The notes under the pieces: generated by a model | Database searches by the model: none | The model's input: only the letters and a program-made list of their open reading frames with translations | What the model was told of the DNA's origin: nothing | Translations under genes and position numbers: made by a program | Shown: piece by piece, positions 573 to 54,401 of the stretch | Position numbering within the stretch: position 1 is the stretch's first letter | How the letters are laid out: every line of letters starts with the position of its first letter | NCBI GenBank assembly: GCA_964608465.1 | Contig: CAZSNI010000001.1 | Coordinates: 16,215 to 80,214 of the forward strand | Direction of reading: 5' to 3' | DNA length: 64,000 bases | Source of the DNA: an uncultured Candidatus Saccharibacteria bacterium | GTDB lineage: Bacteria; Patescibacteriota; Minisyncoccia; Phycocordibacterales; DATDWN01

Positions 573-719
573 ATTTATTAGTTTTTTAGTTAATTTAACT
601 CGTAAATTATAGCAAATTTACCCTCTTACAACAAGCCGTTTTTTTGCTATTTTAATAGTTAAATATTACTTGACTTTTATACTATTTGGTGTTAATATAT
701 AAAACTTAGGAGGAAACAG

Positions 720-1046
720 ATGAAGGGTGTACGGTGTGGAGGTAAGTTCACCGGAAACCATACGACTCTGGTGCCCCTTGCAGAGATCGTGTGTGATATC
801 GCTAACGCGGTACCGGAAGTGACCAAAATCACTCCAGGGTTCATAAAGGCGGGACTGAAGTCGGTATCGGGACAACGTCGAGTAAAGTTTACCGACGAGA
901 CTCCTCATTGCATTTTTCTTTCTATCAGGGACAATGCATCACACCAGGAAGTGAGAGTGTACGTGACTGACATTCAGTCGGCACGCACAACAATCGCAAG
1001 ACGTCTGCGGGACCGAGCCATCACCATCAGGTTCACCAAAGACTAG
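720..1046 (+). CDS. hypothetical 108-aa protein in GC-rich cassette A
   Basis: Strong RBS taggaggaaacagATG. GC-rich codons contrast with the AT-rich flanks. Followed by a long GC hairpin terminator. Confidence 0.5.
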   Translation: MKGVRCGGKFTGNHTTLVPLAEIVCDIANAVPEVTKITPGFIKAGLKSVSGQRRVKFTDETPHCIFLSIRDNASHQEVRVYVTDIQSARTTIARRLRDRAITIRFTKD

Positions 1047-1048
1047 CA

Positions 1049-1098
1049 CCCCGACCGGGAGCCCCGCGCAATGCGCGGGGCTCGGTACGGGGTTTTTT
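1049..1098 (+). terminator. rho-independent terminator (long GC-rich hairpin + T6)
   Basis: ccccgaccgggagccccgcgcaATGcgcggggctcggtacgggg followed by tttttt. Confidence 0.7.
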
Positions 1099-1130
1099 GA
1101 TACAAAAAAATTTCCGCACTTGCATTGCGT

Positions 1131-1280
1131 CGAACTAACATGATTTCAGAGCATCCGCAGGCCGTGAGCATGGTTTCGTCAACGACTCTATGTAATAAGA
1201 GCTCATTGACGAATCACGACCGAGGACCAGAATAAAACTTTCGCAGGAAAGTTTTATGTCTCTGAAATCATGTTAGTTCG
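1131..1280. repeat. perfect 21-bp inverted repeat pair bracketing the sRNA-like element
   Basis: cgaactaacatgatttcagag (1131-1151) and ctctgaaatcatgttagttcg (1260-1280). Confidence 0.8.
1144..1258 (+). ncRNA. candidate structured sRNA, copy 1 (paralog of 29982-30085)
   Basis: tttcagagcatccgcaggccgtgagcatggtttcgtcaa...ttgacgaatcacgaccgaggaccag plus terminal hairpin aaaactttcgcaggaaagtttt. The motif is shared with the second locus and shows compensatory changes. Confidence 0.35.
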
Positions 1281-1287
1281 TAAGCTT

Positions 1288-3192: not shown

Positions 3193-3193
3193 A

Positions 3194-3940: not shown

Positions 3941-3963
3941 ATCACTTCATTGTAGCCCAAAGG

Positions 3964-4031: not shown

Positions 4032-5288
4032 GTGAATATGAGTGACCTAAATAACTACATCACGTACTTTTTCCTATTCATCTCGCTTAACTTTGAGATT
4101 TTTCTACTTATAACTTATTTCGAAAACCGAAAGGAAATCAAAGCCGAATCAAAGGCACAGTCTAACGTAAAGCTGAAAAAATACCCTTCGGTTACTATTA
4201 TCGTACCTTGCTGGAACGAGCAAAACACAGTGTCTAAAACCGTGCATTCTCTACTTAACCTAGACTACCCTAAAGACAAACTGAAAATCATGGTGGTGGA
4301 CGACGGTAGTACTGACAACACTTGGCAAGCGGTCCAAAAGTTTGCAAATCACCCACAAATAGAACTTCACACAAAAGAGAACGGCGGAAAATATACAGCA
4401 CTAAATTATGGAATATCAAAACTAACCACTGACCTAGTGGGATGCCTTGATGCAGACTCATACGTACACAAAGATAGCATGAAAAAAATTGCTCTTTATT
4501 TTGAGGACAAAGAAACTATGGCAGTAGCGCCGTCTATCAAACTTTGGCAACCAAAAAATATCCTGCAACTATTACAGAAAGTAGAATACGGCTTTGGTAT
4601 CTTTACTAGAAAAATGTACCACTACATGAATGCTATCTACATTACTCCTGGGCCTTTTTCAATTTTCAGACGTGAAGTTTTTGAAAAACTAGGTGGATAC
4701 GAACACGCCCACAACACAGAAGACATCCAGATAGCTCTACGAATGCAGAAAAATGGCTTCAAAATCGCTCATGCTCACGAAGCGATAGTTTACACAGTTC
4801 CCCCGGAAACGGTTAAAAAACTTTTGAAACAAAGAGTTCGATGGTCCTATGGTTTTATTAAAAATGCCTATGATTTTCGAGATATGATTTTCAACAAAAA
4901 GTATGGAAATGTTGGAATGCTTATACTCCCAATGGCTTGTATTTCTATAATCTCGGTTTTATTTGTATCTAGTGTTTCTATTTACAGTATTATCAATGGA
5001 TTAGTAAACTGGTTCGTACGCGTACAAACTGTAGGTATAAGTCCCCACTTTAGTTTGCCTAATTTTGATCTATTCTATATAAACACAGAGCTTATTGCTA
5101 TTGTTGGTGTAGTAGTAGCAACAGGATCAATTCTTATGATACTTATGTCAAAGAGAATGTCTGAAAACAAATTTGATATTGGCCTAGACTTGATTTATTA
5201 CCTATCTTTATATATGTTTATTGCGCCACTATGGATTGGAAAGGCTGCTTGGAATGCGGTCTTCAGCGTAAAGACCACTTGGCGCTAG
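4032..5288 (+). CDS. family 2 glycosyltransferase, membrane-integrated (processive GT2-like)
   Basis: DDGSTDNT motif, QxxRW-like region (QRVRWSYG), N- and C-terminal TM segments. Confidence 0.8.
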   Translation: MNMSDLNNYITYFFLFISLNFEIFLLITYFENRKEIKAESKAQSNVKLKKYPSVTIIVPCWNEQNTVSKTVHSLLNLDYPKDKLKIMVVDDGSTDNTWQAVQKFANHPQIELHTKENGGKYTALNYGISKLTTDLVGCLDADSYVHKDSMKKIALYFEDKETMAVAPSIKLWQPKNILQLLQKVEYGFGIFTRKMYHYMNAIYITPGPFSIFRREVFEKLGGYEHAHNTEDIQIALRMQKNGFKIAHAHEAIVYTVPPETVKKLLKQRVRWSYGFIKNAYDFRDMIFNKKYGNVGMLILPMACISIISVLFVSSVSIYSIINGLVNWFVRVQTVGISPHFSLPNFDLFYINTELIAIVGVVVATGSILMILMSKRMSENKFDIGLDLIYYLSLYMFIAPLWIGKAAWNAVFSVKTTWR

Positions 5289-7359: not shown

Positions 7360-7435
7360 GCCACCTTAGCTCAGTTGGTAGAGCAATTCTTTTGTAAAGA
7401 ATAGGTCGTCAGTTCGAGCCTGACAGGTGGCTCCA
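7360..7435 (+). tRNA. tRNA-Thr (anticodon TGT), CCA encoded
   Basis: GCCACCTTAGCTCAGTTGGTAGAGCAATTCTTTTGTAAAGAATAGGTCGTCAGTTCGAGCCTGACAGGTGGCTCCA. Cloverleaf folds by hand and the anticodon loop is TTTGTAA. Confidence 0.85.
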
Positions 7436-7437
7436 AT

Positions 7438-7465
7438 AAAAAATCCCCTAAAGGGGATTTTTTAC
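7438..7465. terminator. bidirectional rho-independent terminator
   Basis: aaatcccctaaaggggattttt with A/T tracts on both sides. Confidence 0.7.
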
Positions 7466-7821
7466 TTACTATCCTCAGACAATCTCTCTAAGAAAGATGA
7501 GACTGACCCGTCGTTCCTAAGTAGTCTTCTACCTCTAAACTCGTTACCAGCATTGTAGTACCGCTTAGCAACATAGTCCTTAGACTTTACTAAAAACTCA
7601 TACAAAAGTGATGGTAAAAAGTCAAAAACAAAAATATGTGCAACTTTTTTATAGTAGTTATATCGTAGCACTCCACCGTCTATAGCAGAGTTGATATATG
7701 CATCCCCTTTCTCGTAGATCCTTTCCAAAAAAGCCACCTTACCTACTTTATTTTCGAACGCTCTGAGTATTACCAAAGCGCTCAATATAGCAAAAGAACC
7801 TATAAATAATATAGTTTCCAT
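7462..7821 (-). CDS. hypothetical small membrane protein
   Basis: 119-aa ORF with an N-terminal hydrophobic helix. No recognisable family. Confidence 0.4.
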   Translation of the reverse strand: METILFIGSFAILSALVILRAFENKVGKVAFLERIYEKGDAYINSAIDGGVLRYNYYKKVAHIFVFDFLPSLLYEFLVKSKDYVAKRYYNAGNEFRGRRLLRNDGSVSSFLERLSEDSK

Positions 7822-7830
7822 ATATAGAAA

Positions 7831-8418
7831 TTATTGAGTAACAGAGTATCTCACAAAGCGAGATAGCTCGATTTTTTCTCCGAATTTCTGTGTTGCAGAC
7901 TCTAGTAGGTTCTTTATAGTAACGTCAGGGTTTTTAATAAAAGCTTGGTTAAGCAAAACTCTTTCACTCCAGTAAGAAGCAAGTTTTCCTTCAAGGATTT
8001 TAGCCTTCATATCTTCTGGCTTGCCTTCGACCTCTTTTAGGAACATTTCCTTTGCTAAATCATTTGAATGTTCATCTATATCTTCCGCTTTTAGAAACTG
8101 TGGATTTGTAGCTGTAGCATGCATAGCAATATCTCGCGCCAAAGCCTTAAATTCCTCGTTCTTTGCAACGAAATCTGTTTCGCATAGTAGTTCAAGCATA
8201 ACACCAACATTGCCAGTAGAATGCACGTATGTAGAAACCACGCCAGCCCCTAGAGTTCTGTCGCTTTTTTTAGAAGCAATATCTGCACTTTTCTTCATAA
8301 GTAGCATTGTTGCCTTCTCCATATCGCCGCCAGTTTCTTCTAGTGCCTTTTTGCACTGCATAACTGAAACTCCAGTTTTATCTCTTAGTTCCTTAACTAG
8401 TTCTGTTGTAATTTGCAT
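7831..8418 (-). CDS. tsf: elongation factor Ts
   Basis: MQITTELVKELRDKTGVSVMQCKKALEETGGDMEKA matches the EF-Ts N-terminal UBA-like signature. Confidence 0.9.
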   Translation of the reverse strand: MQITTELVKELRDKTGVSVMQCKKALEETGGDMEKATMLLMKKSADIASKKSDRTLGAGVVSTYVHSTGNVGVMLELLCETDFVAKNEEFKALARDIAMHATATNPQFLKAEDIDEHSNDLAKEMFLKEVEGKPEDMKAKILEGKLASYWSERVLLNQAFIKNPDVTIKNLLESATQKFGEKIELSRFVRYSVTQ

Positions 8419-19267: not shown

Positions 19268-19296
19268 TAAAAAACCGCCACTGGCGGTTTTTTAAT
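19268..19296. terminator. bidirectional rho-independent terminator
   Basis: aaaaaccgccactggcggtttttt. Confidence 0.75.
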
Positions 19297-20293: not shown

Positions 20294-20499
20294 ATATTTA
20301 TACCGCTAGAAACTGCAAGCATAATAAATCCTAATGCTAAACCAATTATACCAAATATTATTAAAATTATTCCAAATATTCTAAATAAACTTGATAAAGA
20401 ACTTATATTTGGTTTATATATTCTCAAAATTAAAATGCCTCCAACTAAAGCAATGAGAGCTACAATATAAAATTCCAATTCAGTTGGTGTACCTATCAC
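20290..20499 (-). CDS. hypothetical two-TM small membrane protein
   Basis: 69-aa hydrophobic ORF. Weak support. Confidence 0.3.
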   Translation of the reverse strand: MIGTPTELEFYIVALIALVGGILILRIYKPNISSLSSLFRIFGIILIIFGIIGLALGFIMLAVSSGINI

Positions 20500-20510
20500 A
20501 AATTAATTAT

Positions 20511-20547
20511 ACAAAAAAAGGCGTGAGGGGGATAGTCCCCCTCAGCC
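20511..20547 (-). terminator. rho-independent terminator of GC-rich cassette B
   Basis: ggctgagggggactatccccctcacgcc followed by T7 on the minus strand. Confidence 0.7.
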
Positions 20548-20573
20548 CCACATCGCCGACTCAGCGTCAGTTG

Positions 20574-20750
20574 TTAGCGGTACTTACCATTACCGCTGTT
20601 GAACTCAGCGAGTCGGTCGCGTTCCTGGCGAATCGCGAGTTCACGCGCGGAATGCGCCCTGCCGAGTGCCTCCAGCTTCCGCTTCGAAGGGTTCTTCTGC
20701 CGGCGAACAACCTTCGTACCGAAACGACGACCCTTGCTTTTCTTTCCCAC
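20574..20750 (-). CDS. small highly basic protein (58 aa incl. start) in GC-rich cassette B
   Basis: GGAGG SD then GTG. Product GKKSKGRRFGTKVVRRQKNPSKRKLEALGRAHSARELAIRQERDRLAEFNSGNGKYR. About 60% GC. Confidence 0.45.
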   Translation of the reverse strand: MGKKSKGRRFGTKVVRRQKNPSKRKLEALGRAHSARELAIRQERDRLAEFNSGNGKYR

Positions 20751-20813
20751 GAGCACCTCCTAATGCATAAGTGTCCAACATTGAATGCTACACAACCTTA
20801 ACAAACTGGTCAA

Positions 20814-22861: not shown

Positions 22862-22925
22862 AAATACTTTTACATATAGGAAAACCGCCGACTCTGTCGG
22901 CGGCCCCCCACGGGCCGCCAGTCGG
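22862..22925 (-). terminator. double-hairpin terminator module of cassette C (paralogous to 24626-24680)
   Basis: TAA ccgccgactggcgg...ccgccgacagagtcggcgg ttttcctatatg. Confidence 0.6.
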
Positions 22926-22928
22926 CGG

Positions 22929-23204
22929 TTACTTGTTGCACGAGGTACACTCGCACGGAATCTCATAGCTACTGATTCTACCCCCGCCTCCGCCGTCATT
23001 TCTGGAATGAGTACCGTGGGTACTCTTCAGACAGTTGTGCGGGTGAGAGCCTCTACATCCCTCACAGAGAATAGGTTTCTCTCCGACTCTGAAGGACGTC
23101 GGACGGAGTCGACTCGAGTCAGTGACCACAAAGCAAGAGCCGTTGGCCCCTCCAACCATACGGTGGAACCTCAAGCCATGCATAAGCTGTTCGAACGTGG
23201 GCAT
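22929..23204 (-). CDS. hypothetical Cys-rich 91-aa protein in GC-rich cassette C
   Basis: GGGGAGGG SD 4 nt before the ATG. CEGC...HNC...CECTSC cysteine pattern. Confidence 0.4.
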   Translation of the reverse strand: MPTFEQLMHGLRFHRMVGGANGSCFVVTDSSRLRPTSFRVGEKPILCEGCRGSHPHNCLKSTHGTHSRNDGGGGGRISSYEIPCECTSCNK

Positions 23205-23284
23205 TTTGCCCTCCCCTGAATAAATATAAATTAATTAAACTTTTTTGCAAGAATACCAACACGACCAAACTTTCAAAGTTAGTG

Positions 23285-24625: not shown

Positions 24626-24680
24626 ATAGGAAAACCGCCGATGTATAGTCGAACGGGTTTCCGTCGACCACCTTCGGCGG
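24626..24680 (-). terminator. terminator module of cassette D (paralogous to 22862-22925)
   Basis: TAA ccgccgaaggtggtcgacggaaacccgttcgactatacatcggcgg ttttcctatttatg. Confidence 0.6.
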
Positions 24681-24791
24681 TTACTTCTTGTTGCGCTTAC
24701 GGTCTGCACAGATACCAATAGCAACGACTGCCAGGATGCAGAAGATCATAAGCGCTGCGTGGTAGTAGGGCAAGAAACGCGGAGGAATCAT
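24681..24791 (-). CDS. 36-aa single-TM peptide (peptide 2 of a coupled pair)
   Basis: MIPPRFLPYYHAALMIFCILAVVAIGICADRKRNKK. GGAGAA SD. Its ATG overlaps the peptide-1 stop (ATGA). Confidence 0.4.
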   Translation of the reverse strand: MIPPRFLPYYHAALMIFCILAVVAIGICADRKRNKK

Positions 24792-24904
24792 GCCCGGGTT
24801 CTCCGAATAACATCTCGGACACGAACATAAGCGAGTACTCGGAACATCAGGAACCCGAGCTGTATTCCCTGCCACAGATTTGGACGTTCAGCATCGAAGT
24901 GCAT
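24788..24904 (-). CDS. 38-aa amphipathic peptide (peptide 1 of a coupled pair)
   Basis: AGGAAGGAG SD 7 nt before the ATG. MHFDAERPNLWQGIQLGFLMFRVLAYVRVRDVIRRTRA. Confidence 0.4.
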   Translation of the reverse strand: MHFDAERPNLWQGIQLGFLMFRVLAYVRVRDVIRRTRA

Positions 24905-24956
24905 TCCAGATCTCCTTCCTGTTTTAAAATATCACAAACTAAATAGTTTTGAAAGG

Positions 24957-30834: not shown

Positions 30835-30918
30835 TTTTTATCGCATCCCCTAATATTGACTATACTGAAAAAATAATTAGACTATATTTTGGACAAATTT
30901 CAAGGAGTCGCAAGACGC

Positions 30919-31431
30919 ATGAACAGACACGAAGTAATCAGGGCGTTCACCGAACTCGATCGCGAAGCGTTCGGGGACAAGATGCTCAAGTCGCTCGGCC
31001 TCACGGAGCGGGAACTCGAACTTCTCTTGGGGGCACTCAACGCTGTCCCCGATGACAGCTTCGAAATCCCGAACTTCAACGGCCTCGCGAAGAAGCTCAA
31101 GATCAGCAACCCACTCATCCAGATGCTCAAGAAGAAGGGCTACGTCAAGAACGGCTCTGGTCGTGGGAAGTGGGAGGTGACCGAAGGCGGGCTGAAGAAG
31201 ATGGCCAAGTCGATGCAGGTGTCGATCGATGGTGGCGAGAGAATGCCGCCGCCGGAAGTCGTCGAGCTGGAAGACGAGACTCTCCTCTGGCAGAAGTACC
31301 CCATCGACGGCATGACCCTCACGCAGATCGCTGACCGACTCAACGACATCGACAAGTCGGTCGCCGATCTCCTCGCTGAAAAGCGAGCGGTGCAGGGACA
31401 GCTTCGCAAGATGGCGACTCCGATGATGTAG
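30919..31431 (+). CDS. hypothetical 170-aa protein, GC-rich, possible HTH
   Basis: AAGGAG SD. About 55% GC. K/E-rich natural-looking composition, whereas the antisense frame is R/L-rich. Confidence 0.5.
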   Translation: MNRHEVIRAFTELDREAFGDKMLKSLGLTERELELLLGALNAVPDDSFEIPNFNGLAKKLKISNPLIQMLKKKGYVKNGSGRGKWEVTEGGLKKMAKSMQVSIDGGERMPPPEVVELEDETLLWQKYPIDGMTLTQIADRLNDIDKSVADLLAEKRAVQGQLRKMATPMM

Positions 31432-31443
31432 GGAGACAACCCA

Positions 31444-31489
31444 AGAAAAATCGAAAAGGGACTGACAACGCTCGCGCGTTGCCAGTCCC
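31444..31489. terminator. near-palindromic GC hairpin terminator between convergent genes
   Basis: gggactgacaacgctcgcgcgttgccagtccc, with a T-tract on the minus strand. Confidence 0.6.
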
Positions 31490-31510
31490 TCGTTCGTCTC
31501 GAAAGACTTC

Positions 31511-32857
31511 TTACAGATCACTCTCTTTGTACTTGTAACCAGCCGCCTCCAATCTTCTCCAGACTCTAGCGACAACCCTCTTTACGTTATCCTCGCTAAA
31601 GCCAAAATGTTTCGCGGTTTGTGAAAGCCCCTTACATGCTACGTCTGAACGACCGTAGTACGTCAGGAAAACTTCCTGTTCGACGATTGATAAGGGCTGC
31701 AACTTAGCGCCCAGTGAGCGGTAAACCTCGTCGTCCTTTTTTACGGGACTAATAGGTTTCGATTCTCTTGTGACTTCCGGAGCCAGTTCCGCAACAGAAA
31801 CATGATTACTCGGTTCTGGAACGTATGAGGCGAGTTCCTTGAGTTCGTTGAGACCTCTCACGAAGTCCCGCATCTCTCCCTTTCCCATCCTCAAGTAACC
31901 AAGAACCTTGTACTCGATCTGCCTGATGCGTTCCCGGGTAAGAGCAAACCTCTGCCCAACTTCTTCAAGTATTTTGGGATCAAAGGTTCCATCATCCAGA
32001 CCATAAAGCGCAAAGAATTTCTCAGCGTGTTTTGGTACAACACGCAGGACCTTTGCTTTTATGTTCTCCAACTTGAGCATTGCAACCTCGAGCTCCATCC
32101 GAGCCTCGACAGCTACAGCATCACTGTTGTGTCCGACGTCAGCGATAAAGTCGTTTATCACGACCTCTTCGCCATCTTTAGAAGTCCACACCGGCGTTTC
32201 CAATGACGAATCCCCATTAACAAGTTTCGCCCTTCTAACCTTCGCCAGTTTCGACTTACTCCAACCTAACGACGACATTGCTTCGTCATCGTCAGGTTTT
32301 GTACCACTCCCACCTTCGATGTTTCTCTCGAACCTCACAAGCTTTACCACATCACTGTACATGTGCTGTGGCAAACGAATGTTTCTCGAGGTGTTCGCCA
32401 AGGCGCGAGATATTGCCTGTCGTATCCACCACGTGGCATAAGTCGAGAACTTGAAACCTCTTTCCGCTTCAAATTTATCAACTGCCAACATGAGGCCAAT
32501 GTTTCCCTCCTGAATCAAATCCAGGAATTCCAAACCCCAATTGCCATACTTTCTGGCAATACTTACCACAAGTCGAAGGTTATGTCTTATCAACCTCTCC
32601 TTGAGTTTGGGGTCTCTAGTTGTTTGATACTCAGTGAACAACCTCACCTCTTCTGCTTTTTTGAGCAAAGGAAGTTCACCAGCCTCAACGAGGTAACGAT
32701 GAACGATATCATGTGGTTCTTTTGAAACCACGACGTTATCGTCAACATCTTCATCCACATCGAGTAGTTCCCAGACTTTCTCAGCCGGGATCTTGTCCAA
32801 ATCCTCTTCCAAATCATCGGGAGAGGAATAGTCTACTACGGCATCTGCCTCTGACAT
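31511..32857 (-). CDS. sigma-70 family RNA polymerase sigma factor (regions 1.2-4) with an extra C-terminal region-4-like domain
   Basis: Region 2 [39 protein letters not shown]. Region 4 [14 protein letters not shown]. Additional [15 protein letters not shown]...[12 protein letters not shown]. Confidence 0.8.
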
Positions 32858-35839: not shown

Positions 35840-36271
35840 ATGAATACTTTTTTTAATAAGTTTGGTTTTGTTACTTGGCAACTTCCTGGAATATTTCTTC
35901 TTACAATAGCTTTCTGGCTAAACGGGATTCGTATAGTAAAAATAATGAACTACTATTCATTCTGGGGAGGCGTTGGAAGTATTATTATTTACGTACTCAG
36001 TTTCCCTGTCGCTTTTCTTGCAATAAAAGCTGTAAGCAAAATTTTGAAACTAACAGAGAAACAAGTGTATCCAGCTATCATTTTAATAGTATCGCTGGTT
36101 GGACTACTACATGGAGTAGCTCTTACATATAAACCAGAAATGTACCGAGCCACTGGTGAGTCGCTTATATTTGCGACTGCATGGATTATTTGGTTCTGTG
36201 GCGCAACCATACTCACATTGTTTTACATTCAACAAAAAGATTCTCCCTCAGAGAAAATTAATCAAAGTTAA
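35840..36271 (+). CDS. hypothetical 4-TM membrane protein
   Basis: 143 aa with four hydrophobic helices. Confidence 0.45.
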   Translation: MNTFFNKFGFVTWQLPGIFLLTIAFWLNGIRIVKIMNYYSFWGGVGSIIIYVLSFPVAFLAIKAVSKILKLTEKQVYPAIILIVSLVGLLHGVALTYKPEMYRATGESLIFATAWIIWFCGATILTLFYIQQKDSPSEKINQS

Positions 36272-36282
36272 AAACGGCGCCG

Positions 36283-36312
36283 GGGTGTAAACCCTGACGC
36301 CGTTCCGGCTTG
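36283..36312 (-). terminator. GC-rich hairpin terminator of cassette E
   Basis: cggcgccgggg...ccctgacgccg plus T-tract on the minus strand. Confidence 0.5.
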
Positions 36313-36324
36313 GTGCGAACTGGA

Positions 36325-36486
36325 CTAAATCTTCCAGATCGCGTGCTCGTAGCCGTTGTTGGCGGGAACGACCTTGGTCGCTTCCACACCGTGGCCCGTG
36401 CTGGGCTGGCCGAAGTTCTTGTCCATGTAGGACAGGATGCCGACGACCAGCACACACACAACCACAAACAGAACGTTATCTCGCAA
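36325..36486 (-). CDS. 53-aa exported/membrane-anchored peptide in GC-rich cassette E (TTG start)
   Basis: AAGGAGA SD, 6 nt, then TTG. MRDNVLFVVVCVLVVGILSYMDKNFGQPSTGHGVEATKVVPANNGYEHAIWKI. Confidence 0.4.
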   Translation of the reverse strand: MRDNVLFVVVCVLVVGILSYMDKNFGQPSTGHGVEATKVVPANNGYEHAIWKI

Positions 36487-36567
36487 TACCTGTCTCCTTG
36501 AAAGACGTTTGTAGTATTATAGCACATAATACTACTTTGTCAACTTTTCACTATGAATATCCTCTGG

Positions 36568-40211: not shown

Positions 40212-40229
40212 ATGTTCTTAAAATTTTTC

Positions 40230-41156: not shown

Positions 41157-41159
41157 AAC

Positions 41160-45176: not shown

Positions 45177-45178
45177 AA

Positions 45179-46015
45179 TTATTTTCTCAAATTATCATCC
45201 AAGGTATTTCCAGCATCATCTTTCCAAGCTGTCCAACCATTAATTGGCCTCCCCGTGGTGGTTGCAGCTGCCGCAGATGGACTTTTAAATAAAATATCTT
45301 TTGTATAAACGTATGACATTTTATCACCTACTTCTACAAAGGTACCATCTTCCAGAAATCGTTTGCGAGCAGCTTGTGACCATCCCCAAAAAGCTTCCGT
45401 TTCTCTTATGCGAGCAGTAGATCCCTTTAATACATTAAGACTGCCATCTGCAAGTAGTTGGGCCTTTGCATCTGCCCCTTCTGCTTTCAGGAAATAAATT
45501 TTTTCATCAGTAATTGATTCGGCGACAGTTTCAAATACTTCATAACCAATTGCGCCAAGTATAAATTGCATATTCTCAAAATACTGCTCAACTGTGACTT
45601 TTTCAAATTCTGATAGAGTATTTTCTTGTGGTTGAACTTTATTCTGCACAAGCATTCGGTTTGCGTCGTGAGCAGTTGTTGTAGTTTTGTATTCTAGATA
45701 TTTAACAAATGCTCTATTTAATCCACCTGTAAAAACAACCGCAATGTTCCAAAAATCTTTATTTGAATCATGGTTAGAAATCCTACTATAAAAATTTTCA
45801 GATTCACCGATATAAACAAGCTCATCTGAAGAACTCTCGTCTATTCCAAATAATAAATAGAGTCCTGGCTTATTTACCTCAGGGCGATCTTTTAATTCCT
45901 TTAAACTTTGACGAGGCACTACAAAACACTTGCCTGACCAACCTGCAAGATCAATTATTTTCATTCCATTTGGATTTCCTTCAGGAACGAGCATTTGTAA
46001 GGCCTTAGATTTCAT
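45179..46015 (-). CDS. GIY-YIG nuclease-family protein (DUF4357-like C-terminus), first gene of the candidate defence operon
   Basis: KPGLYLLFG...DELVYIGESENFYSRISNHD. Start trimmed to MKSKALQ so the ORF no longer overlaps the upstream gene. A 2-nt gap separates it from the next gene. Confidence 0.65.
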   Translation of the reverse strand: MKSKALQMLVPEGNPNGMKIIDLAGWSGKCFVVPRQSLKELKDRPEVNKPGLYLLFGIDESSSDELVYIGESENFYSRISNHDSNKDFWNIAVVFTGGLNRAFVKYLEYKTTTTAHDANRMLVQNKVQPQENTLSEFEKVTVEQYFENMQFILGAIGYEVFETVAESITDEKIYFLKAEGADAKAQLLADGSLNVLKGSTARIRETEAFWGWSQAARKRFLEDGTFVEVGDKMSYVYTKDILFKSPSAAAATTTGRPINGWTAWKDDAGNTLDDNLRK

Positions 46016-46115
46016 ATTGTTCCAAAACTGTACCACTTTTATCCCCAGCAATCCAGTTAGTGAAAATCTACTCAACCGGACAAGCATTCCCGCCAATTGC
46101 GGTTTAAAACCAAAA

Positions 46116-46763
46116 TTATTTAATATCCACCTGAACCTCATTCCGAAGCATAAAAGGCAAGGTCCAAGGAGGGTTGAATCTAGCAATGTTTACCGCGCCC
46201 ACTGGCACTACACCATCTCGTTTGAGTGATGCCAAAAGTGACTCTTCGTTCTTGCGAAGTCTTGTTTCATTTACTACCCAAGTAAACCTCCTTACTGCGA
46301 CTTTTCTAGATGGAACCTGTATAAGTGACACGCGAGAGTCGTTTGGTATTGGCAGGGCATCCATAGTGTATTCACTTGGCAAAACAAATGATACTTTATA
46401 TGAACCCTTCTCCGCCTGCTCAGTATTCACCGGAACTGTCATCGCTATTTTTTCAGAATTTGTTTTTTCTGTATTTACTGGAGCCGTCATTGCTATCTTA
46501 TCTTTCTTTTTGTTGTCTCCAAAAATGTATCCGGCAACTATTGGGAAGCCTTTCCTTACCGCATCATCTCTGTCTACCGCACCAGAAATAACTGTTTCAG
46601 CAAGTATGTATGAGTTGTACTGCCGTATCTCGTATCCATCTGCCTTACTCACCACAGAGTACTTTGGCTCTTCAATATTTCTAACAGAAAGCCAACTATA
46701 TAGAAACCAAATAAGGAGCACTAAACCCAAAGTAATTAAAATATACATTGTTTTATTATTCAT
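46116..46763 (-). CDS. SOUL heme-binding-family protein with N-terminal TM
   Basis: EEPKYSVVSKADGYEIRQY...FGDNKKKDKIAMTAPV pattern of the SOUL/HBP family. Confidence 0.65.
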   Translation of the reverse strand: MNNKTMYILITLGLVLLIWFLYSWLSVRNIEEPKYSVVSKADGYEIRQYNSYILAETVISGAVDRDDAVRKGFPIVAGYIFGDNKKKDKIAMTAPVNTEKTNSEKIAMTVPVNTEQAEKGSYKVSFVLPSEYTMDALPIPNDSRVSLIQVPSRKVAVRRFTWVVNETRLRKNEESLLASLKRDGVVPVGAVNIARFNPPWTLPFMLRNEVQVDIK

Positions 46764-47679: not shown

Positions 47680-47706
47680 ATAAATATTATACCAAAGTAT
47701 ACGTGA

Positions 47707-47735
47707 CAGCCCCGCGCACGTGTGTGGCGGGGCTG
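47707..47735 (-). terminator. GC hairpin terminator of cassette F, gene 1
   Basis: cagccccgcgcacgtgtgtggcggggctg. Confidence 0.5.
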
Positions 47736-47753
47736 AGTGATGGTCGGACTTGG

Positions 47754-47981
47754 CTATGCGAGCCGGGGACTGATCATGTCGAAGTGCAGGCAGGCGACTT
47801 TTCTGTCACCGCCGACATACACGTAGACATAACGCCCAATGCGCCGCGTAGCAACTCCGTTCTTTGTTCGGCGCATGAGAACTTGCGAGAGATGGTCTAG
47901 CGAGTCCTGCGGTATCTTTGCGGACCACAGACCAATGAAGTTCATATCCGGAACTGTCTGAACCGAAGCTGGCTCCTGCAT
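47754..47981 (-). CDS. hypothetical 75-aa protein in GC-rich cassette F
   Basis: AGAAAGGA SD 5 nt before the ATG. About 57% GC. Confidence 0.45.
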   Translation of the reverse strand: MQEPASVQTVPDMNFIGLWSAKIPQDSLDHLSQVLMRRTKNGVATRRIGRYVYVYVGGDRKVACLHFDMISPRLA

Positions 47982-48046
47982 GCTTGTCCTTTCTTATTTG
48001 TACGGTTTCGTTTTTCAGTCTACAAAAAAGTTAAGAGGCTGTCTAT

Positions 48047-48085
48047 TAAAATGCGAAACGGCTCCACGTATGCGTACGTGGAGCC
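48047..48085 (-). terminator. perfect 11-bp-stem hairpin terminator of cassette F, gene 2
   Basis: ggctccacgta tgcg tacgtggagcc, then T-rich on the minus strand. Confidence 0.6.
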
Positions 48086-48104
48086 GAGTCGAGCGTTTGC
48101 TCGA

Positions 48105-48386
48105 TTAGTTGTTTTCGGTCGCGCGGTAGATTGAGATACCTTCGCTTTCGTGATCGGGGAGAAATTCGACGATCAAATCCATCACGAACTCGACTTCGCC
48201 GGTTGTGAGGATGGTCGGGTACTTGTTGACGTACTGCCAGTCGACTGACTCGCCACTGATCGCACACACTGCCTGTACGAACCTTTCGACATCCTCCGTG
48301 AGTGCATCTCGGAGCTGGCAGACGATCACACCTTCCCTGTCGATATCGGGATCACACGCCTGCACTTCCATGTCCGCAACGGCCAT
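48105..48386 (-). CDS. hypothetical acidic 93-aa protein in GC-rich cassette F
   Basis: AAAGGA SD. Natural-looking composition. About 55% GC. Confidence 0.5.
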   Translation of the reverse strand: MAVADMEVQACDPDIDREGVIVCQLRDALTEDVERFVQAVCAISGESVDWQYVNKYPTILTTGEVEFVMDLIVEFLPDHESEGISIYRATENN

Positions 48387-48463
48387 TTTACTATCCTTTC
48401 AGGGATAATATTCCCGATGAGAGTCTACAATAGAACGCACACCTTGTCTATTGAGAATTTAAC

Positions 48464-48970: not shown

Positions 48971-49033
48971 AATAAAATTATAACAAATTATTCTTTCTGC
49001 GGATGGTACAGGACTTAAACCTTATAAACAAAG

Positions 49034-49120
49034 CGGAGAGTAGGAGATTTGAACTCCTGAGGGAATTTCTTCCCTACCCGCTTTCCAAGCGAGCGCACTA
49101 GACCGCTATGCGAACTCTCC
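49034..49120 (-). tRNA. tRNA-Ser (anticodon GGA), long variable arm, CCA not encoded
   Basis: GGAGAGTTCGCATAGCGGTCTAGTGCGCTCGCTTGGAAAGCGGGTAGGGAAGAAATTCCCTCAGGAGTTCAAATCTCCTACTCTCCG. All four stems pair. Confidence 0.8.
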
Positions 49121-49237
49121 GCTTTATTTATAAACTTTCCAACGTAGGTCACGAATAATTTTTTGCTAAAAATTTTCTTGACCACACCTCGCACCGACGT
49201 GCTCCGGTTTTGAAATGTCCCTAACCCACATTTCAAC

Positions 49238-49262
49238 ACCAGACCGCTATGCGAACCATCCA
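49238..49262 (-). repeat. duplicate of the tRNA-Ser 5' half (acceptor 5' strand plus D-arm), 22/25 identical
   Basis: Minus strand GGATGGTTCGCATAGCGGTCTGGTG versus the tRNA GGAGAGTTCGCATAGCGGTCTAGTG. Followed by an unrelated 9-bp-stem hairpin. Confidence 0.7.
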
Positions 49263-49278
49263 AAATAATATTCTATAT

Positions 49279-49313
49279 TAAAAACGAGGAGGTGACGAAC
49301 GTGTCACCTCCTC
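49279..49313 (-). terminator. 11-bp-stem hairpin terminator of the GC-rich NUDIX gene
   Basis: gaggaggtgac gaacg tgtcacctcctc, then TTTT on the minus strand. Confidence 0.7.
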
Positions 49314-49840
49314 TACTCATCCGCCGCACAAACGACAACTACGTCCGAGAGCAGACGATAGTTGTGGTCCTGCTCGACCCAGGCGTGCATGTTGCGACCG
49401 TGGAGGAACTGCGGGAGCCAGAACTTGTCTCCCGGCAAAAGGTTCAGTCGTGGAATGCTGTGTACGCGATGGAAACCAGGACTACGCATTTCCTCTGTTG
49501 AACGGATCTCCCCGTACCAGAACTGTGTGACGTAAACATACACGTCGCAATTGACCACACGGCCGTCTTCTTTGTGGTTTGCGAAATGCACCACACCAAC
49601 ACAGTTGAACACATCCTGCTCGACTGCTTCGTCGGGAATAGTTGCGCCTCCAGTTTCTTCCTTGAACTCGCGCATGGCACACTCGTGGATTGACTCACCA
49701 GGCTCTACTCCACCTCCCCACCCGTTGAGATACCCCACCCCGATGCCACGCATTTTCGTTGCGAGCATCAGGTTGTTACCACGACGCGGAAACACGAGAG
49801 TCGCTACAAGCGGTGGATCACCATTTGCCTGCATAGGCAC
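49313..49840 (-). CDS. NUDIX hydrolase (GC-rich copy, cassette G)
   Basis: Nudix box GGGVEPGESIHECAMREFKEETGG. About 55% GC. Confidence 0.75.
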   Translation of the reverse strand: MPMQANGDPPLVATLVFPRRGNNLMLATKMRGIGVGYLNGWGGGVEPGESIHECAMREFKEETGGATIPDEAVEQDVFNCVGVVHFANHKEDGRVVNCDVYVYVTQFWYGEIRSTEEMRSPGFHRVHSIPRLNLLPGDKFWLPQFLHGRNMHAWVEQDHNYRLLSDVVVVCAADE

Positions 49841-49890
49841 CCTTTCCTTTCTTTTGAAAATACTATACTTATTTACAACTTTTTCAAGAA

Positions 49891-50700: not shown

Positions 50701-50701
50701 T

Positions 50702-51304: not shown

Positions 51305-51486
51305 ACTAGGATTCTAACATATGTGCAGAGTGTGAATGGTCAGACCCTTGCACACCCTATAGAAACTTTCATAATTTGGATGAGATACGATGTTGAGTAA
51401 TTGAAAATACGAGAAGCCTTACAAGTAGTAAGGTGACGAGAATTTTTAATTACAAAACAAGTAGATCGCCAAATTTGGAAGTTTCA

Positions 51487-52365
51487 CTACCAAGATCCAG
51501 ACGATCCTCCTCCTCCGGAACTACCCCCACCAAATCCACCAAACCCTCCCCCTCCGGAGCCACCTCTTCCTCCACCACTCATCCACCAAGGGTTCACGCC
51601 GTTTGCGCGTGCATTTGTGTATGACTTTGAAACAAGATAGTCAAACAACAGCCCAAGAAGCACGAGAACAATGACCATTGGAACAGCGATGATAAATGAG
51701 GCGACAAAAAAGTTCCACAAAATAATTCCGAGTACGCCCCCAACAACTCCTCCTCCCCACCATGATTTTGATCTAGAAAGTAGTGACAGAATTATTTGGA
51801 AGAAGATAATAAATATCCAAAAAATAAATTCAAAGTTAAAACCCGAACTACTTTTTTCTGAATAGTTTTCTGGAACAATATTGTTTCCACCAAGCGCCTC
51901 TATCATTTTATCCACCGCCCCGTTTATTCCCAAGTTATAGTCCCCCACTCGAAACGCCGGAGTGACAATGTCTCTCTGTATATATGAAGTACCAATATCA
52001 GTAAGATCCCCCTCGACACCATAGCCAGTGTGAATACGAGTTTTTCGGTCAGTCAGAGAAACAAGAAAAAGCACCCCGTTGTTTTTGTCTGCTTTTCCTA
52101 TGCCCCATTTTGTAAAAATTTCTTGTGCAACGTTTTCTACCGTATCTCCATCTAGTGAGTTTATGGTCACAACCGCGATTTCATTTGTGCTGTTTTTCTC
52201 AAAGCTCTGAAGTTTATTCTCCAATGCAGTTACCTGCTCTGCCGTAAGTATTCCAGCGTAGTCCTGTACAAAACCAGTCGGCTTTTCTGGCACAGTAAAA
52301 GCAAAAGTAACAATTGGAATAACAAAAGCAAATATGGTTAGAAATATTTTTGAAGAAAAACGCAT
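51487..52365 (-). CDS. TPM-domain (TLP18.3/Psb32-type) phosphatase with TM region and Gly-rich tail
   Basis: YAGILTAEQV...NEIAVVTINSLDGD...GVLFLVSLTDRKTRIHTGYG. C-terminal GGGSGGGG repeats. Confidence 0.75.
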   Translation of the reverse strand: MRFSSKIFLTIFAFVIPIVTFAFTVPEKPTGFVQDYAGILTAEQVTALENKLQSFEKNSTNEIAVVTINSLDGDTVENVAQEIFTKWGIGKADKNNGVLFLVSLTDRKTRIHTGYGVEGDLTDIGTSYIQRDIVTPAFRVGDYNLGINGAVDKMIEALGGNNIVPENYSEKSSSGFNFEFIFWIFIIFFQIILSLLSRSKSWWGGGVVGGVLGIILWNFFVASFIIAVPMVIVLVLLGLLFDYLVSKSYTNARANGVNPWWMSGGGRGGSGGGGFGGFGGGSSGGGGSSGSW

Positions 52366-52378
52366 AGTTTTTTCTGTT

Positions 52379-53218
52379 TTAAAGTACAGGAGACTCTGCA
52401 GTCACACTTTTCAAGTTAACCCAAACTACTACAAGAAGAATAAGTGTCGGCACTAGCATAGGCATTGGCATTCCCAAAAAGAAGAACAGAACTGACAGAA
52501 GTGTTGGCAAAGTAACAGCGTACATAGAAACACTGTATGACTTTTTGTAACTTAGGTTTACTTTTTTCAATTTTGAAAGAAGCATAACTAGCAGTGCTGC
52601 AACAAGTAGATAAACTAATTTGAACATGTATGCAACAAGAACTCCCACCAAGATAAGTAGTGGTACCGCGCCAGAAAGCACTCTTGAAATTGAATCTGTT
52701 TTTAAGAACCATCTTGTTAAGTTTTCATAGTTCACAGTAAAGTCTGGAATATCTTTAAGTGGAGTAATATTTACTCTGCCATCACTACCCTCCACAACAA
52801 AACTATCTTTAGTTAAAAGTATAATTGTTTTATAACTTCTGAATTTTTCTAAGTTAAAATCATTTTTGGTGTCGATAACCAAAACATTATCAAAATCCTC
52901 TACTTCTTTATCCATCGCTTTCAGATTTGCAGGAGCAGGTACAAAGTAAGGTTCTGTAGCGTTTGTTGAAGCGATACCACCTTGAATTTTAACTTCTAGA
53001 TCTTTCGGGTAGTTCTGCTCTATTTTATTTCTTGCATCAACTAGAAATTCCTTTATGTTTGGAACTACCATAAAAGAACTAGTTAGTGAAAAAACCAAAG
53101 CCAAAACTAAAGAAAGTTTCAGAAAATATTTGAATGGGCCTTTTTCTCTGCCTTCCACTACATCAGAATAAAACGCAGGATTATATACACTAGATTTAAT
53201 TTTGTTTAAAAAACTCAT
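52379..53218 (-). CDS. hypothetical polytopic membrane protein
   Basis: 279 aa. Lies between the TPM and LemA genes. Confidence 0.45.
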   Translation of the reverse strand: MSFLNKIKSSVYNPAFYSDVVEGREKGPFKYFLKLSLVLALVFSLTSSFMVVPNIKEFLVDARNKIEQNYPKDLEVKIQGGIASTNATEPYFVPAPANLKAMDKEVEDFDNVLVIDTKNDFNLEKFRSYKTIILLTKDSFVVEGSDGRVNITPLKDIPDFTVNYENLTRWFLKTDSISRVLSGAVPLLILVGVLVAYMFKLVYLLVAALLVMLLSKLKKVNLSYKKSYSVSMYAVTLPTLLSVLFFFLGMPMPMLVPTLILLVVVWVNLKSVTAESPVL

Positions 53219-53239
53219 TATATTGCACCTAAAGGTGAG

Positions 53240-53833
53240 TTAGTTAGTAAAATCTACTACAGGGTTAACTTGTGCTGCATCAGAAACCTCAAAGTATGCT
53301 CTCTCGTCTACTCCAAAAATCATAGCGACAAGAGATGATGGGAATACTTTTACACTTGTGTTAAAAACTTTTACCAAGTCATTGTATTTCATTCTTTCAA
53401 CTGAAATTCTGTTTTCTGTTCCTTCTAGAGAAACGATAAGATCTCTGTAAGCTTGAGAAGACTGAAGTGTAGGGTAAGCCTCTGCGATAACAAGTAGTCT
53501 TCCTAGAGCACCTTCTACTTGTGATGCTGCCTGAGCTTTTTGGTCTGGAGTTGTTGCACCAGAGTATTTTGTTCTAGCATCAGCAATAGCAGTGAAAACT
53601 GCTGTTTCCTGAGCTGCTACTCCTTTTACTGTGTTTACAATGTTTGGGATAAGGTCGAAGCGTCTTTGGTACTGGTTTTCTACTTGTGACCACTGTGCTG
53701 TGATAGATTCGTTACTTTTTACAAAGCCGTTTTTAATACCAACAGCCCAGAAAGCTAAAACTACCAAAACCGCCAAAACTACTAGCCATTTCATGTTTCT
53801 CTGTAAAAATCCTTTTTCTTGTGTTTGTTCCAT
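53240..53833 (-). CDS. LemA family protein
   Basis: N-terminal TM plus the LemA signature (NQYQRRFDLIPNIVNTVKG...). Confidence 0.8.
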   Translation of the reverse strand: MEQTQEKGFLQRNMKWLVVLAVLVVLAFWAVGIKNGFVKSNESITAQWSQVENQYQRRFDLIPNIVNTVKGVAAQETAVFTAIADARTKYSGATTPDQKAQAASQVEGALGRLLVIAEAYPTLQSSQAYRDLIVSLEGTENRISVERMKYNDLVKVFNTSVKVFPSSLVAMIFGVDERAYFEVSDAAQVNPVVDFTN

Positions 53834-53952
53834 ATTTATAAGTTTATTTGTTAAGTTTTAATCCCTGGCATTATACCATATTTCCCCCAAAGGAAAATCC
53901 GTCACCACCATGGAGACGAATCCCCTTGTGTGACGGACGCTTTGAGTCAGAA

Positions 53953-54288
53953 CTACCAGAACTCGAGAGGGCCTCCAAAATTCCTTCGTAGGACCCTTTT
54001 TAGTTTGACTCTTTCTGAATCTGACAGCAGTTTTACTTTAACTGCCATAACCCCCTTACTGGACCCTCTGAGCTGGTACTCTTTGCCGACCACTATGCCG
54101 GCGACGACTACAAAACTCCTCCGCCCGACCGAGACATGATGACCGACGATCGTTCCGTACTTGCGAGACTTGTATCGGTAAGTAAGACCGTGGGTCTCGG
54201 GCACATCAATCCAGTCTGAAGTGACTTCATCCCGGATAATGTACTCATCAAATCTCACCTGGGGCCTCTTTGGAATGGTTCTGGGCAC
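53953..54288 (-). CDS. hypothetical 111-aa protein in GC-elevated cassette H (GTG start)
   Basis: GGAGG SD, 8 nt, then GTG. VPRTIPKRPQVRFDEYIIRDEV... About 48% GC. Confidence 0.4.
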   Translation of the reverse strand: MPRTIPKRPQVRFDEYIIRDEVTSDWIDVPETHGLTYRYKSRKYGTIVGHHVSVGRRSFVVVAGIVVGKEYQLRGSSKGVMAVKVKLLSDSERVKLKRVLRRNFGGPLEFW

Positions 54289-54401
54289 TTTTATCACCTC
54301 CTTCCAAAAACAAAATAACACCGAATTACTTGTTCGTCAATTAACACAGGATGACAAGACCGGTTGCATTATTTCACAAATCTAGTACTATAGTATTCAT
54401 T

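Follow-up and report, generated by a model that had tools for sequence, protein, structure and literature searches.

The DNA examined here is a window of 64,000 nucleotides (positions 16,215 to 80,214 of contig CAZSNI010000001.1, assembly GCA_964608465.1) which has an overall GC content of 38.0% and carries housekeeping genes such as pheT, a split transketolase (tktN and tktC), rpiB, gap and nrdAB. Between these genes lie short GC-rich units that probably represent portable accessory genes organised like the morons of phages, and it is these units, designated A to E, I5a with a sigma factor gene, F75, F93, G and H, that are the subject of this report. The closest loci for glyceraldehyde-3-phosphate dehydrogenase (GAPDH) among 185,579 species genomes belong to metagenome-assembled genomes of Patescibacteria labelled Saccharibacteria, Nomurabacteria or Paceibacterota; among full-length matches L001 is the best with 90% GAPDH identity, and the next has 78%. 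L001 has the gene order of the window over 21 kb, L037 has a GAPDH that is 93% and transketolase (tkt) genes that are 94-95% identical to those of the window, and the tkt genes of L088 are as similar to the window as those of L037. Based on the labels of these GAPDH relatives and on the homologs of a DUF2103 protein encoded in the window, which their sources name Parcubacteria or Paceibacterota, the lineage is best assigned to a Nomurabacteria-like Parcubacterium of the candidate phyla radiation (CPR).

A first-pass annotation of this DNA had listed nine GC-rich segments, and all of them were recovered as the top nine of a maximum-scoring-segment scan of the window, with a GC content of 0.51-0.62 (725-1092, 20520-20760, 22885-23218, 24635-24921, 30904-32437, 36275-36465, 47702-48384, 49285-49842 and 53884-54288). 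One of them, segment F, consists of two separate units (F75 and F93), and the units together amount to 5.5 kb or 8.6% of the window. A tenth GC peak at 51497-51612 was rejected as a further cassette; it is due to the GGN codons that encode the Gly-rich C-terminus of a TPM-domain protein (a tail conserved in L099), gives no RNA-structure signal and serves as a negative control. The ORF (open reading frame) sizes given in the same annotation are correct (108, 58, 91, 38 plus 36, 170 with the 448-residue sigma factor, 53, 75, 93, 175 and 111 amino acids), as are the positions between tktN and tktC, between gap and rpiB, between nrdB and gap, and beside tRNA-Ser. The GC content at third codon positions (GC3) is 0.46-0.81 in the cassette ORFs as compared to 0.294 +/- 0.053 (maximum 0.41) in 54 native ORFs of at least 130 amino acids, corresponding to z-scores of 3.9 to 9.8 for the cassette ORFs scored. 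The dinucleotide signature distance (delta*, based on relative abundances corrected for base composition) between the pooled cassettes and the backbone is 0.164, whereas native chunks of equal length give 0.052 +/- 0.016 with a maximum of 0.093. The strong Shine-Dalgarno (SD) sequences that had been claimed for the units are borne out by a mean anti-SD duplex energy of -9.9 kcal/mol against -1.1 kcal/mol for native genes (Mann-Whitney p = 3e-7), only 10% of which reach -6 kcal/mol. The claimed GC-rich terminators likewise find their counterpart in ten predicted hairpins that directly follow the stop codons, with folding energies of -22 to -40 kcal/mol (z -2.9 to -6.9), while the best downstream fold of native genes averages -11.8 kcal/mol (p = 2e-7). 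A T-run follows most of these hairpins, with none clear at F75. Near-consensus -35/-10 pairs are predicted upstream of A, B, C, I5a, E, F93, F75, G and H, that of E matching the consensus at 12 of 12 positions, and D has no evident promoter of its own. The segments thus form a distinct class, which composition, dinucleotide signature, terminators and SD strength each mark independently. As a set they are heterogeneous, including both a widely conserved family (A) and a conserved pair (sigma and the 170-residue protein), and the idea that they make up one dedicated family did not hold: the encoded proteins are mutually unrelated, and a repeat family linking the islands was ruled out by a window-wide repeat search in which the only similarities between islands were a 3' module common to C and D and a tRNA remnant. 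The description of the products as unannotatable applies to only part of them, as A is a DUF2103 protein, G a NUDIX protein, the sigma factor is RpoD-like and the 170-residue protein is predicted to have a MarR-like fold.

Unit A (670..1098, + strand) has a GC content of 0.51 and contains an ORF at 720-1046 for a protein of 108 amino acids that matches the Pfam family DUF2103 at 7e-10. The ORF is preceded by a promoter-like TTGACT..TAATAT and the SD sequence AGGAGG, and followed by a GC hairpin of about 20 bp (-39.9 kcal/mol) with T6. At least 99 homologs of about 109 amino acids share 50-83% identity with the protein, which is found with 100% identity on 5 contigs. Unit A is an old, well-conserved gene of the lineage that shares the architecture and not an orphan. 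Between its terminator and the pheT stop at 1288 lies a 150-nucleotide element (1131-1280) whose ends form a perfect 21-bp inverted repeat (CGAACTAACATGATTTCAGAG) and which folds into a Y-shaped structure with a predicted energy of -82 kcal/mol (z -8.8). The element has no Rfam match and no second copy in the window or the fetched loci, and it could be a miniature inverted-repeat transposable element (MITE)-like sequence or an undescribed structured RNA.

Unit B (20513..20813, - strand) occupies the slot between tktN and tktC and encodes a very basic protein of 58 amino acids from a GTG start (ORF 20574-20750), with a predicted promoter TTGACC-17-TAGCAT, the SD sequence AGGAGG and a hairpin followed by T7. 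Its ortholog in L088 (P0019, GC3 0.72) sits in the equal slot and shares about 67-68% of its residues, compared to 94% for the flanking proteins. Unit C (22876..23250, - strand) lies between gap and rpiB and encodes a Cys-rich protein of 91 amino acids (ORF 22929-23204), whose family comprises 5 proteins only among 5.8 billion. It has the promoter-like sequence TTGCAA-16-TATATT, the SD sequence GGGGAGGG and a two-tier hairpin (AACCGCCGA..TCGGCGGTT) followed by TTCCTAT. Unit D (24626..24925, - strand), located between nrdB and gap, contains the SD sequence AGGAAGGAG and two peptide genes that overlap in ATGA, pep1 (24788-24904, 38 amino acids) and pep2 (24681-24791, 36 amino acids, transmembrane), followed by a 3' module equal to that of C. 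The unit stands in place of the native nrdB terminator and is probably co-transcribed with nrdB, since no promoter of its own is evident. A pep2 homolog (P0045, 64-66% identity) in the equal slot of L094 is followed by a different membrane ORF of 99 amino acids and then by a C/D-type 3' module. The possibility that D is a decayed copy of a C-family gene was rejected, as the likeness is confined to the 3' module of about 70-90 nucleotides and the coding parts are unrelated. Unit E (36270..36543, - strand) combines a perfect predicted promoter, TTGACA-16(TG)-TATAAT, with the SD sequence AAGGAGA, an ORF of 53 codons starting with TTG (36325-36486, GC3 0.81) and a hairpin followed by T5. The peptide has a hydrophobic N-terminal segment, and transmembrane-like segments are a feature of the D and E peptides alike. 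Its three homologs are 71-76% identical, among them P0012 (74%) and P0015 (71%); in L089 the unit has retained its promoter unchanged and directly follows the g37298 ortholog without the intervening DUF2202 gene.

Unit I5a (30856..31431, + strand) encodes a protein of 170 amino acids (ORF 30919-31431, GC3 0.81) under the predicted promoter TTGACT-16-TAGACT. The protein has no match in Pfam or NCBIfam and belongs to a family of about 25 homolog clusters. In its structure model (pLDDT 82) the N-terminal domain is a winged helix and the C-terminus forms a long helix, and the top 50 Foldseek hits all belong to the MarR family (probability about 1, TM 0.34-0.45, E about 1e-3), which is consistent with a MarR-like regulator fold. 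Convergent with I5a is a gene of the sigma-70 family (31511..32857, - strand; GC 0.47, GC3 0.50), and the two share a predicted bidirectional terminator at 31456..31491, a 16-bp hairpin of -26.5 kcal/mol (z -6.1). The RpoD-like sigma factor of 448 amino acids has the Pfam r2 and r4 domains and falls below every NCBIfam equivalog cut-off. It carries a C-terminal extension of about 125 amino acids past region 4 (residues ~325-448) that includes, as judged by eye, a second region-4-like helix-turn-helix segment. The order in the relative L087 is peptidyl-prolyl isomerase (PPIase), a sigma gene of 349 codons, I5a, a convergent sigma gene of 452 codons and peptidase M10, so that two sigma genes lie on either side of the I5a homolog, and a hairpin similar to the shared terminator is visible in the sequence. 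The GC3 values of the L087 pair (0.52 and 0.42) are between those of the backbone and the window. The sigma factor and its L087 copy are 57% identical and the neighbouring PPIase is 79% identical, so that sigma evolves faster than its neighbour. The corresponding slot in L001 (2199-3523) is without the pair and contains tRNA-Ser(cga), tRNA-Gly(ccc) and a gene of 291 codons with 60% GC. This gene encodes a protein with a signal peptide and with a tail (PVPEP...LLRRKKS) resembling PEP-CTERM, a sorting signal which is typical of other phyla and not expected in CPR bacteria.

Units F75 and F93 are adjacent to each other and, together with unit G, cluster near tRNA-Ser. F93 (48048..48450, - strand) encodes an acidic protein of 93 amino acids (ORF 48105-48386, GC3 0.69) between the predicted promoter TAGACA-17-TAGACT and a 12-bp hairpin. 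The family consists of about 10 homolog clusters, and in L092 and L093 the protein is 67% identical beside a neighbour that is 99-100% identical. A structure model gave only a generic ferredoxin-like fold. F75 (47703..48045, - strand), a family of three members, encodes 75 amino acids (ORF 47754-47981, GC3 0.63) and has the predicted promoter TAGACA-17-TAGACT, a conserved 5' leader and the hairpin CAGCCCCGC..GCGGGGCTG. Unit G (49280..49887, - strand) encodes the NUDIX protein of 175 amino acids (ORF 49313-49840, GC3 0.60) and is bounded by a promoter-like TTGAAA..TATAGT and an 11-bp hairpin with T5. A pseudo-tRNA and tRNA-Ser(gga) follow downstream of it, and the ortholog of G in L099, with 54% amino acid identity and a GC3 of 0.58, is found in the equal position beside tRNA-Ser. 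The pseudo-tRNA (49165..49261, - strand; repeat family D11) sits between unit G and the functional tRNA-Ser (49033-49120) and is a decayed partial 5' copy of the latter (acceptor and D-arm, 24/27 nucleotides), which is not called a tRNA by ARAGORN or Rfam. Unit H (53891..54340, - strand) encodes a basic protein of 111 amino acids from a GTG start (ORF 53953-54288), with the predicted promoter TTGACG-17-TATTTT, the SD sequence GGAAGGAGGTGA and a two-tier hairpin followed by TTTTCCT. One of its homologs is 100% identical and another (P0047) 40%; the latter is located between groEL and LemA in L096 and is mildly GC-elevated. A separate stretch of the window that adjoins an FtsK-gamma-domain gene (39450-46186) is unusually AT-rich (GC 0.27-0.34) and encodes a DUF5677 protein, an unannotated ORF of 308 amino acids, one of 1338 amino acids and a restriction-associated GIY-YIG/DUF4357 protein; this gives the impression of a low-GC accessory or defence island in its own right.

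The window derives from a metagenome-derived genome and GC-rich patches in AT-rich genomes are often RNAs, so that assembly chimeras or structured non-coding RNAs have to be considered as a source of the units. This is scarcely credible given their recurrence and their coding character. H is 100% identical over 3.3 kb in an independent assembly from another sequencing run (L086), A is likewise identical in independent assemblies, and orthologs of B, D, E, F75, F93, G and I5a occupy equal slots in other assemblies, which excludes the chimeras for which a check had been proposed. No known RNA family of Rfam matched in the islands, and the unit ORFs show the GC1/2/3 periodicity that coding DNA typically has. 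When 1.84 billion cluster representatives were scanned exhaustively with HMMER, small families of matching length were recovered for every orphan (one member for B, two for pep2 of D), in which reading frames and lengths are conserved down to about 40% identity. A word-indexed search with seven concatenated orphans had returned no match. This was a false negative, and negatives from such searches with long concatenated queries are unreliable, as even a 100% identical sequence was missed. The ratio of nonsynonymous to synonymous substitution rates (dN/dS) is 0.29-0.72 for the cassettes and 0-0.11 for the flanks. Judged by these sequence comparisons, the units are real, fast-evolving protein genes.

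The occupancy of the slots differs among relatives. In L001, tktN and tktC are 4 bp apart and B is missing, nrdB and gap are separated by 100 bp with an ordinary AT-rich terminator in place of D, and the 270 bp between gap and rpiB do not contain C. In L037 the B and C slots consist of short AT-rich spacers, and L088 carries B although its tkt similarity equals that of the B-less L037. The slot between nrdB and gap is empty in L001 and carries D in the window, the pep2 homolog with the 99-residue ORF in L094 and a C-family gene in L056, L081 and L085; in the three genomes with the C-family gene this homolog thus follows nrdB and is not located between gap and rpiB. The units assort independently, because F93 is present in L092 and L093 without F75 and the GNAT gene, G and F75 are present in L099 without F93 and the native-type NUDIX gene, and L081 carries an additional gene of 165 codons (7423-7920, GC 0.51, GC3 0.60) that is absent from the near-identical L085. 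The phenomenon is lineage-wide. Further GC-rich genes were noted in L089, where a CPBP-like gene of 163 codons follows E, and in L097 (124 codons, 314-688). Small-gene turnover in these slots extends beyond the GC-rich units, since AT-rich small membrane ORFs are polymorphic too: an ORF of 69 codons between B and tktC (20290-20499, - strand) is absent in L088, and of such ORFs between gap and rpiB there are four in L085 (8463-9671) and one in L037.

Some of the units recur as complete blocks in unrelated neighbourhoods. The F75 homolog in L097 is located between VanW and acyltransferase genes and encodes a protein with 42% identity, yet 50/52 nucleotides of its -10 box and 5' leader agree with the window; the last ten codons and the terminator are conserved as well, and inside the ORF the nucleotide identity is near 50%. 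The F75 copy of L099 is 100% identical in promoter and leader and 71% identical in its protein, and the homology among the window, L099 and L097 starts exactly at the -35 hexamer. An F93 homolog (42% identity) with restriction-modification neighbours in L095, a locus of 32% GC, retains the promoter of the window, TAGACAAGG-N-TGTAGACTC. Another type of recurrence is provided by the 3' module of C and D (0 chance matches expected), which is also found in the nrdB-gap cassettes of L056, L081, L085 and L094. It consists of GTAACCGCCGA, a variable inner hairpin and TCGGCGGTTTTCCTAT, followed by the TATAAT of the next gene, and the ORFs ahead of it are mutually unrelated. The region beside tRNA-Ser in L099 contains an exact 19-nucleotide direct repeat of the tRNA-Ser 3' end (4356-4374 and 4581-4599, - strand; GAATCTCCCCGTTTCCGCA); the repeats enclose about 200 bp, the second copy abuts the F75 promoter, and this is apparently an att-like integration scar. 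The window itself has no second copy of the tRNA-Ser 3' end within 3 mismatches, and the resemblance of a stretch upstream of F75 to an att remnant, at 8/11 nucleotides only, was not relied on. 'Repeated acquisition of portable small genes' is a fair description because of the slot polymorphism and because F75 and F93 recur with promoter, leader and terminator in unrelated neighbourhoods. In favour of acquisition over ancestry, units are absent or replaced in similarly close relatives, and against it several are co-inherited with their flanks within the sub-lineage at similar synonymous divergence.

In each unit a small ORF precedes an imperfect two-tier hairpin, an arrangement reminiscent of integron-type cassettes, in which the 3' hairpins would be attC-like sites moved by an integron integrase. 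The module of C, D, L094 and L056, with its conserved AAC...GTT base, variable and compensated interior and different cargo, suits such a scheme. It is very improbable all the same: the boxes AAGTAAC and GTTTTCC do not fit the R'' (RYYYAAC) or R' (GTTRRRY) sites, T-runs follow the hairpins as in intrinsic terminators, the hairpins of the other units are mutually unrelated, the units have promoters of their own and are dispersed over 54 kb and not arrayed, and no tyrosine recombinase was detected among about 30 ORFs scanned.

The promoter pattern T[AT]GAC[ATC]-N16-18-TAGACT occurs 3 times in the window (null mean 0.18), in each case at I5a, F93 or F75, and in the relatives this type of promoter was found only before homologs of the same three units. 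It would thus be common to I5a, F93, F75 and their homologs in five other genomes, and it invites the suggestion that the units make up a coordinated, mobile system of small-protein cassettes in episymbiotic CPR bacteria. An alternative sigma factor gained from outside, together with the MarR-like protein paired with it (30.9-32.9 kb), would then act through the TAGACT -10 element on a regulon of scattered, portable cassettes, with GC selected and the proteins diversifying rapidly as factors in interactions with hosts or competitors. The GC content may in that case be kept by selection for mRNA stability or for insulation in an SD-poor, AT-rich genome, for example. This scenario is improbable, if less so than integron-type movement.

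In comparisons with the closest relatives the synonymous rate (dS, estimated by NG86) of the cassettes is similar to that of their flanks, and the nonsynonymous rate (dN) is 4-10 times higher. The dS of B is 0.48 (dN/dS 0.58, against P0019) as compared to 0.39 for tktC in L088, that of F93 0.46 as compared to 0.24 and 0.38 for its flanks, that of E 0.21 as compared to 0.51, and that of F75 against L099 is 0.60 with flanks of 1.1-1.4; the dN/dS of B, F93 and E is 0.46-0.72 and that of their flanks 0-0.11. Because cassette dS approximates flank dS and only dN is high, the low protein identity beside neighbours that are 94-100% identical reflects the fast protein evolution of co-inherited orthologs. 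The swapping of alleles from an external pool was rejected on the same grounds for B and F93. The flanks of B in L088, when compared to 19295-21185 of the window, are discordant at equal protein identity (94%), with a dS of 2.03 for the tktN fragment and 0.39 for tktC, which may indicate that a recombination breakpoint lies in the cassette or close to it.

Every homolog for which DNA was retrieved is GC-elevated relative to its own locus, with a GC3 of 0.37-0.84 as compared to 0.2-0.4 for neighbouring genes. In a two-state amelioration model with an equilibrium GC3 of 0.29 and elapsed times taken from flank dS, the values for E, F75, G and the L092 copy of F93 exceed neutral GC3 even from a start of 100% GC3 at the split. 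Since GC3 lies beyond these neutral limits, the GC content of the cassettes would be either maintained, by selection or a biased process, or renewed by lateral spread after the lineages split. Maintenance is what would be expected on the main rival explanation, namely that the units are strongly expressed native small genes whose GC content, SD sequences and terminators are selected, be it for stable mRNA or for insulated high expression where most genes have no SD sequence, and whose patchiness is due to frequent loss in a streamlining genome. The elevated GC3 across orthologs with saturated dS favours this explanation, and so does the dS of E and F75, which is about 0.4-0.5 times that of the flanks where neutrality predicts about 1.4 times, consistent with synonymous constraint. 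It can further draw on the full architecture of A in a gene conserved across Parcubacteria, on the synteny of I5a and sigma in L087, and on the failure to find a donor. It is nonetheless rather unlikely, as the dinucleotide signature deviates beyond GC content, native genes of the window that are candidates for high expression show ordinary GC3, and dN/dS values of 0.3-0.7 in tiny families are ill-suited to important, highly expressed core genes. Nor does it readily account for identical unit types (F75, F93) in unrelated neighbourhoods, for one slot with different cargo and one family in different slots, or for the att-like tRNA repeat in L099.

The first-pass annotation had proposed a GC-rich donor, possibly a host, and repeated direct transfer from such a cellular donor (e.g. 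the host of an episymbiont) with donor-style signals still fading would account for the deviant GC content, codon usage and dinucleotide signature, for an SD-led translation and long GC hairpins unlike those of native genes, and for the GC-rich PEP-CTERM-like gene, of a type typical of other phyla, in the sigma slot of L001. The searches did not bear this out, and a direct transfer of this kind is considered quite improbable. All 11 recovered contexts are AT-rich CPR-like backbones (32-43% GC, short contigs up to 51%) in which the units are GC-elevated, none of them is GC-rich, and no matches for the units were found in viral collections. The scan of 1.84 billion representatives yielded small families only, promoters and leaders are conserved among the CPR copies and move with the ORF, and GC3 does not fade as expected. 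In addition, passages of a study on aquifer Patescibacteria describe horizontal gene transfer (HGT) in these bacteria as abundant and mostly intra-phylum (PMC12455944).

The best explanation, and a probable one, is that the units are moron-like accessory units in the chromosome of this bacterium. Each of them would constitute a self-contained transcription unit with a sigma-70-type promoter, a strong SD sequence, one small ORF (two in D and in I5a/sigma) and a long GC-rich intrinsic terminator, placed intergenically between conserved housekeeping genes or beside tRNA-Ser. It is proposed that they enter by horizontal transfer from a pool that circulates among related Patescibacteria or their undiscovered mobile elements, and that the source is not a GC-rich cellular host. 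Insertion may occur by recombination in or near terminator/promoter junctions and sometimes by tRNA-targeted integration; homologous exchange between relatives via the conserved flanks is another candidate route. Their own signals would plausibly allow the units to be expressed and insulated wherever they land. Once inserted they are passed on together with their flanks, and their high GC content would either be kept up actively or be replenished as they spread laterally between relatives. They encode a varied set of small accessory proteins, comprising membrane peptides, a basic and a Zn-finger-like protein, a NUDIX hydrolase, and a candidate MarR-like regulator paired with an alternative sigma factor. 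Phage origin and an assignment to defence or anti-defence were both pursued for them and rejected; PADLOC and PHROG gave nothing specific, PHROG contained no structural or replication family match and NCBIfam added nothing specific. Profile scans for loci of the I5a family in viral and metagenome contigs returned no confirmed relative, as degenerate patterns were swamped.

A number of points weigh against the moron-like explanation. No phage, plasmid, integrase or transposase was found, and no recombinase is present among the approximately 30 ORFs that were Pfam-scanned, including those near tRNA-Ser. Scans of IMG/VR viral sequences were empty and INPHARED gave generic similarity to sigma only, with no match for I5a. 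No GC-rich donor or host was found among the homologs placed from the exhaustive HMMER scan; the donor may be absent from databases. A is conserved across Parcubacteria, and the sigma/I5a pair is syntenic in L087. At least part of the set is therefore old, and a cause of GC-richness other than HGT may for this reason hold for all the units. The unit promoters and terminators are predictions from consensus, dS was obtained by NG86 on short genes, and the amelioration model is crude in relying on these values and on a single equilibrium GC3. Contexts were recovered for part of the family members, many of them on contigs of 1-6 kb, and the differences in presence among relatives may reflect gain or loss.

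The genomes of CPR bacteria or Patescibacteria are tiny and streamlined, and it is poorly understood in what way new functions are acquired and tried out in them. The units suggest a recurrent 'plug-and-play' format by which single genes could be dropped between essential genes without disturbing them, and the encoded proteins evolve 4-10 times faster than their neighbours. The combination of high GC3, a strong SD sequence and a hairpin in an AT-rich, SD-poor genome may serve as a signature for finding fast-evolving small proteins that possibly mediate symbiont-host interaction. The persistence of GC past neutral amelioration also raises the question of whether deviant composition always marks recent transfer or can be maintained.

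Among known systems, integron cassettes share with the units the small ORF with an imperfect inverted repeat and the association of one 3' module with different cargo, but the units lack attC consensus boxes, an array and, among the ORFs scanned, intI, and they have their own promoters and terminator-like hairpins. Islands targeted to tRNA genes resemble the cluster of G, F93 and F75 at tRNA-Ser with the pseudo-tRNA beside G, the 19-nucleotide repeat of L099 and the GC-rich gene beside tRNA-Ser and tRNA-Gly in L001. They differ in that no integrase was seen among the ORFs scanned, the window is without a 3'-end repeat, and A-E and H are away from tRNAs. The transferred genes and islets described for Patescibacteria (PMC12455944) are, in the passages concerned, likewise accessory genes derived by HGT, mainly within the phylum and often from donors that were not recovered. 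These passages deal with detection by phylogeny, BLAST and IslandViewer and focus on metabolic genes and larger islands; a recurrent promoter-SD-ORF-terminator architecture is not described in them, nor are GC-rich mini-units and their persistence. The closest parallel is with the morons ('more DNA') of phages of the HK97/HK022 type (Juhala/Hendrix; PMC3594210), which are defined by their own promoter and terminator, a GC content unlike that of their neighbours, and a location between two genes that adjoin each other in related genomes (PMC3594210). The units share with them the small single ORF, the promoter and factor-independent terminator (both predicted here), the deviant GC content, the insertion between genes adjacent in relatives, the presence/absence polymorphism and the diverse accessory cargo. 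Unlike morons they have no phage genes nearby and no matches in viral collections, their GC-richness persists over deep divergence, and three families have an unusual TAGACT -10 element. Residence in a phage or prophage is part of the moron concept, and the flanks here are the housekeeping genes of a CPR bacterium (tkt, gap, rpiB, nrdAB and pheT). By analogy, then, the units would function as morons do, although the strict sense of the term does not cover them, as they are not in a phage, and an architecture known from phages would be encountered here in a cellular chromosome.

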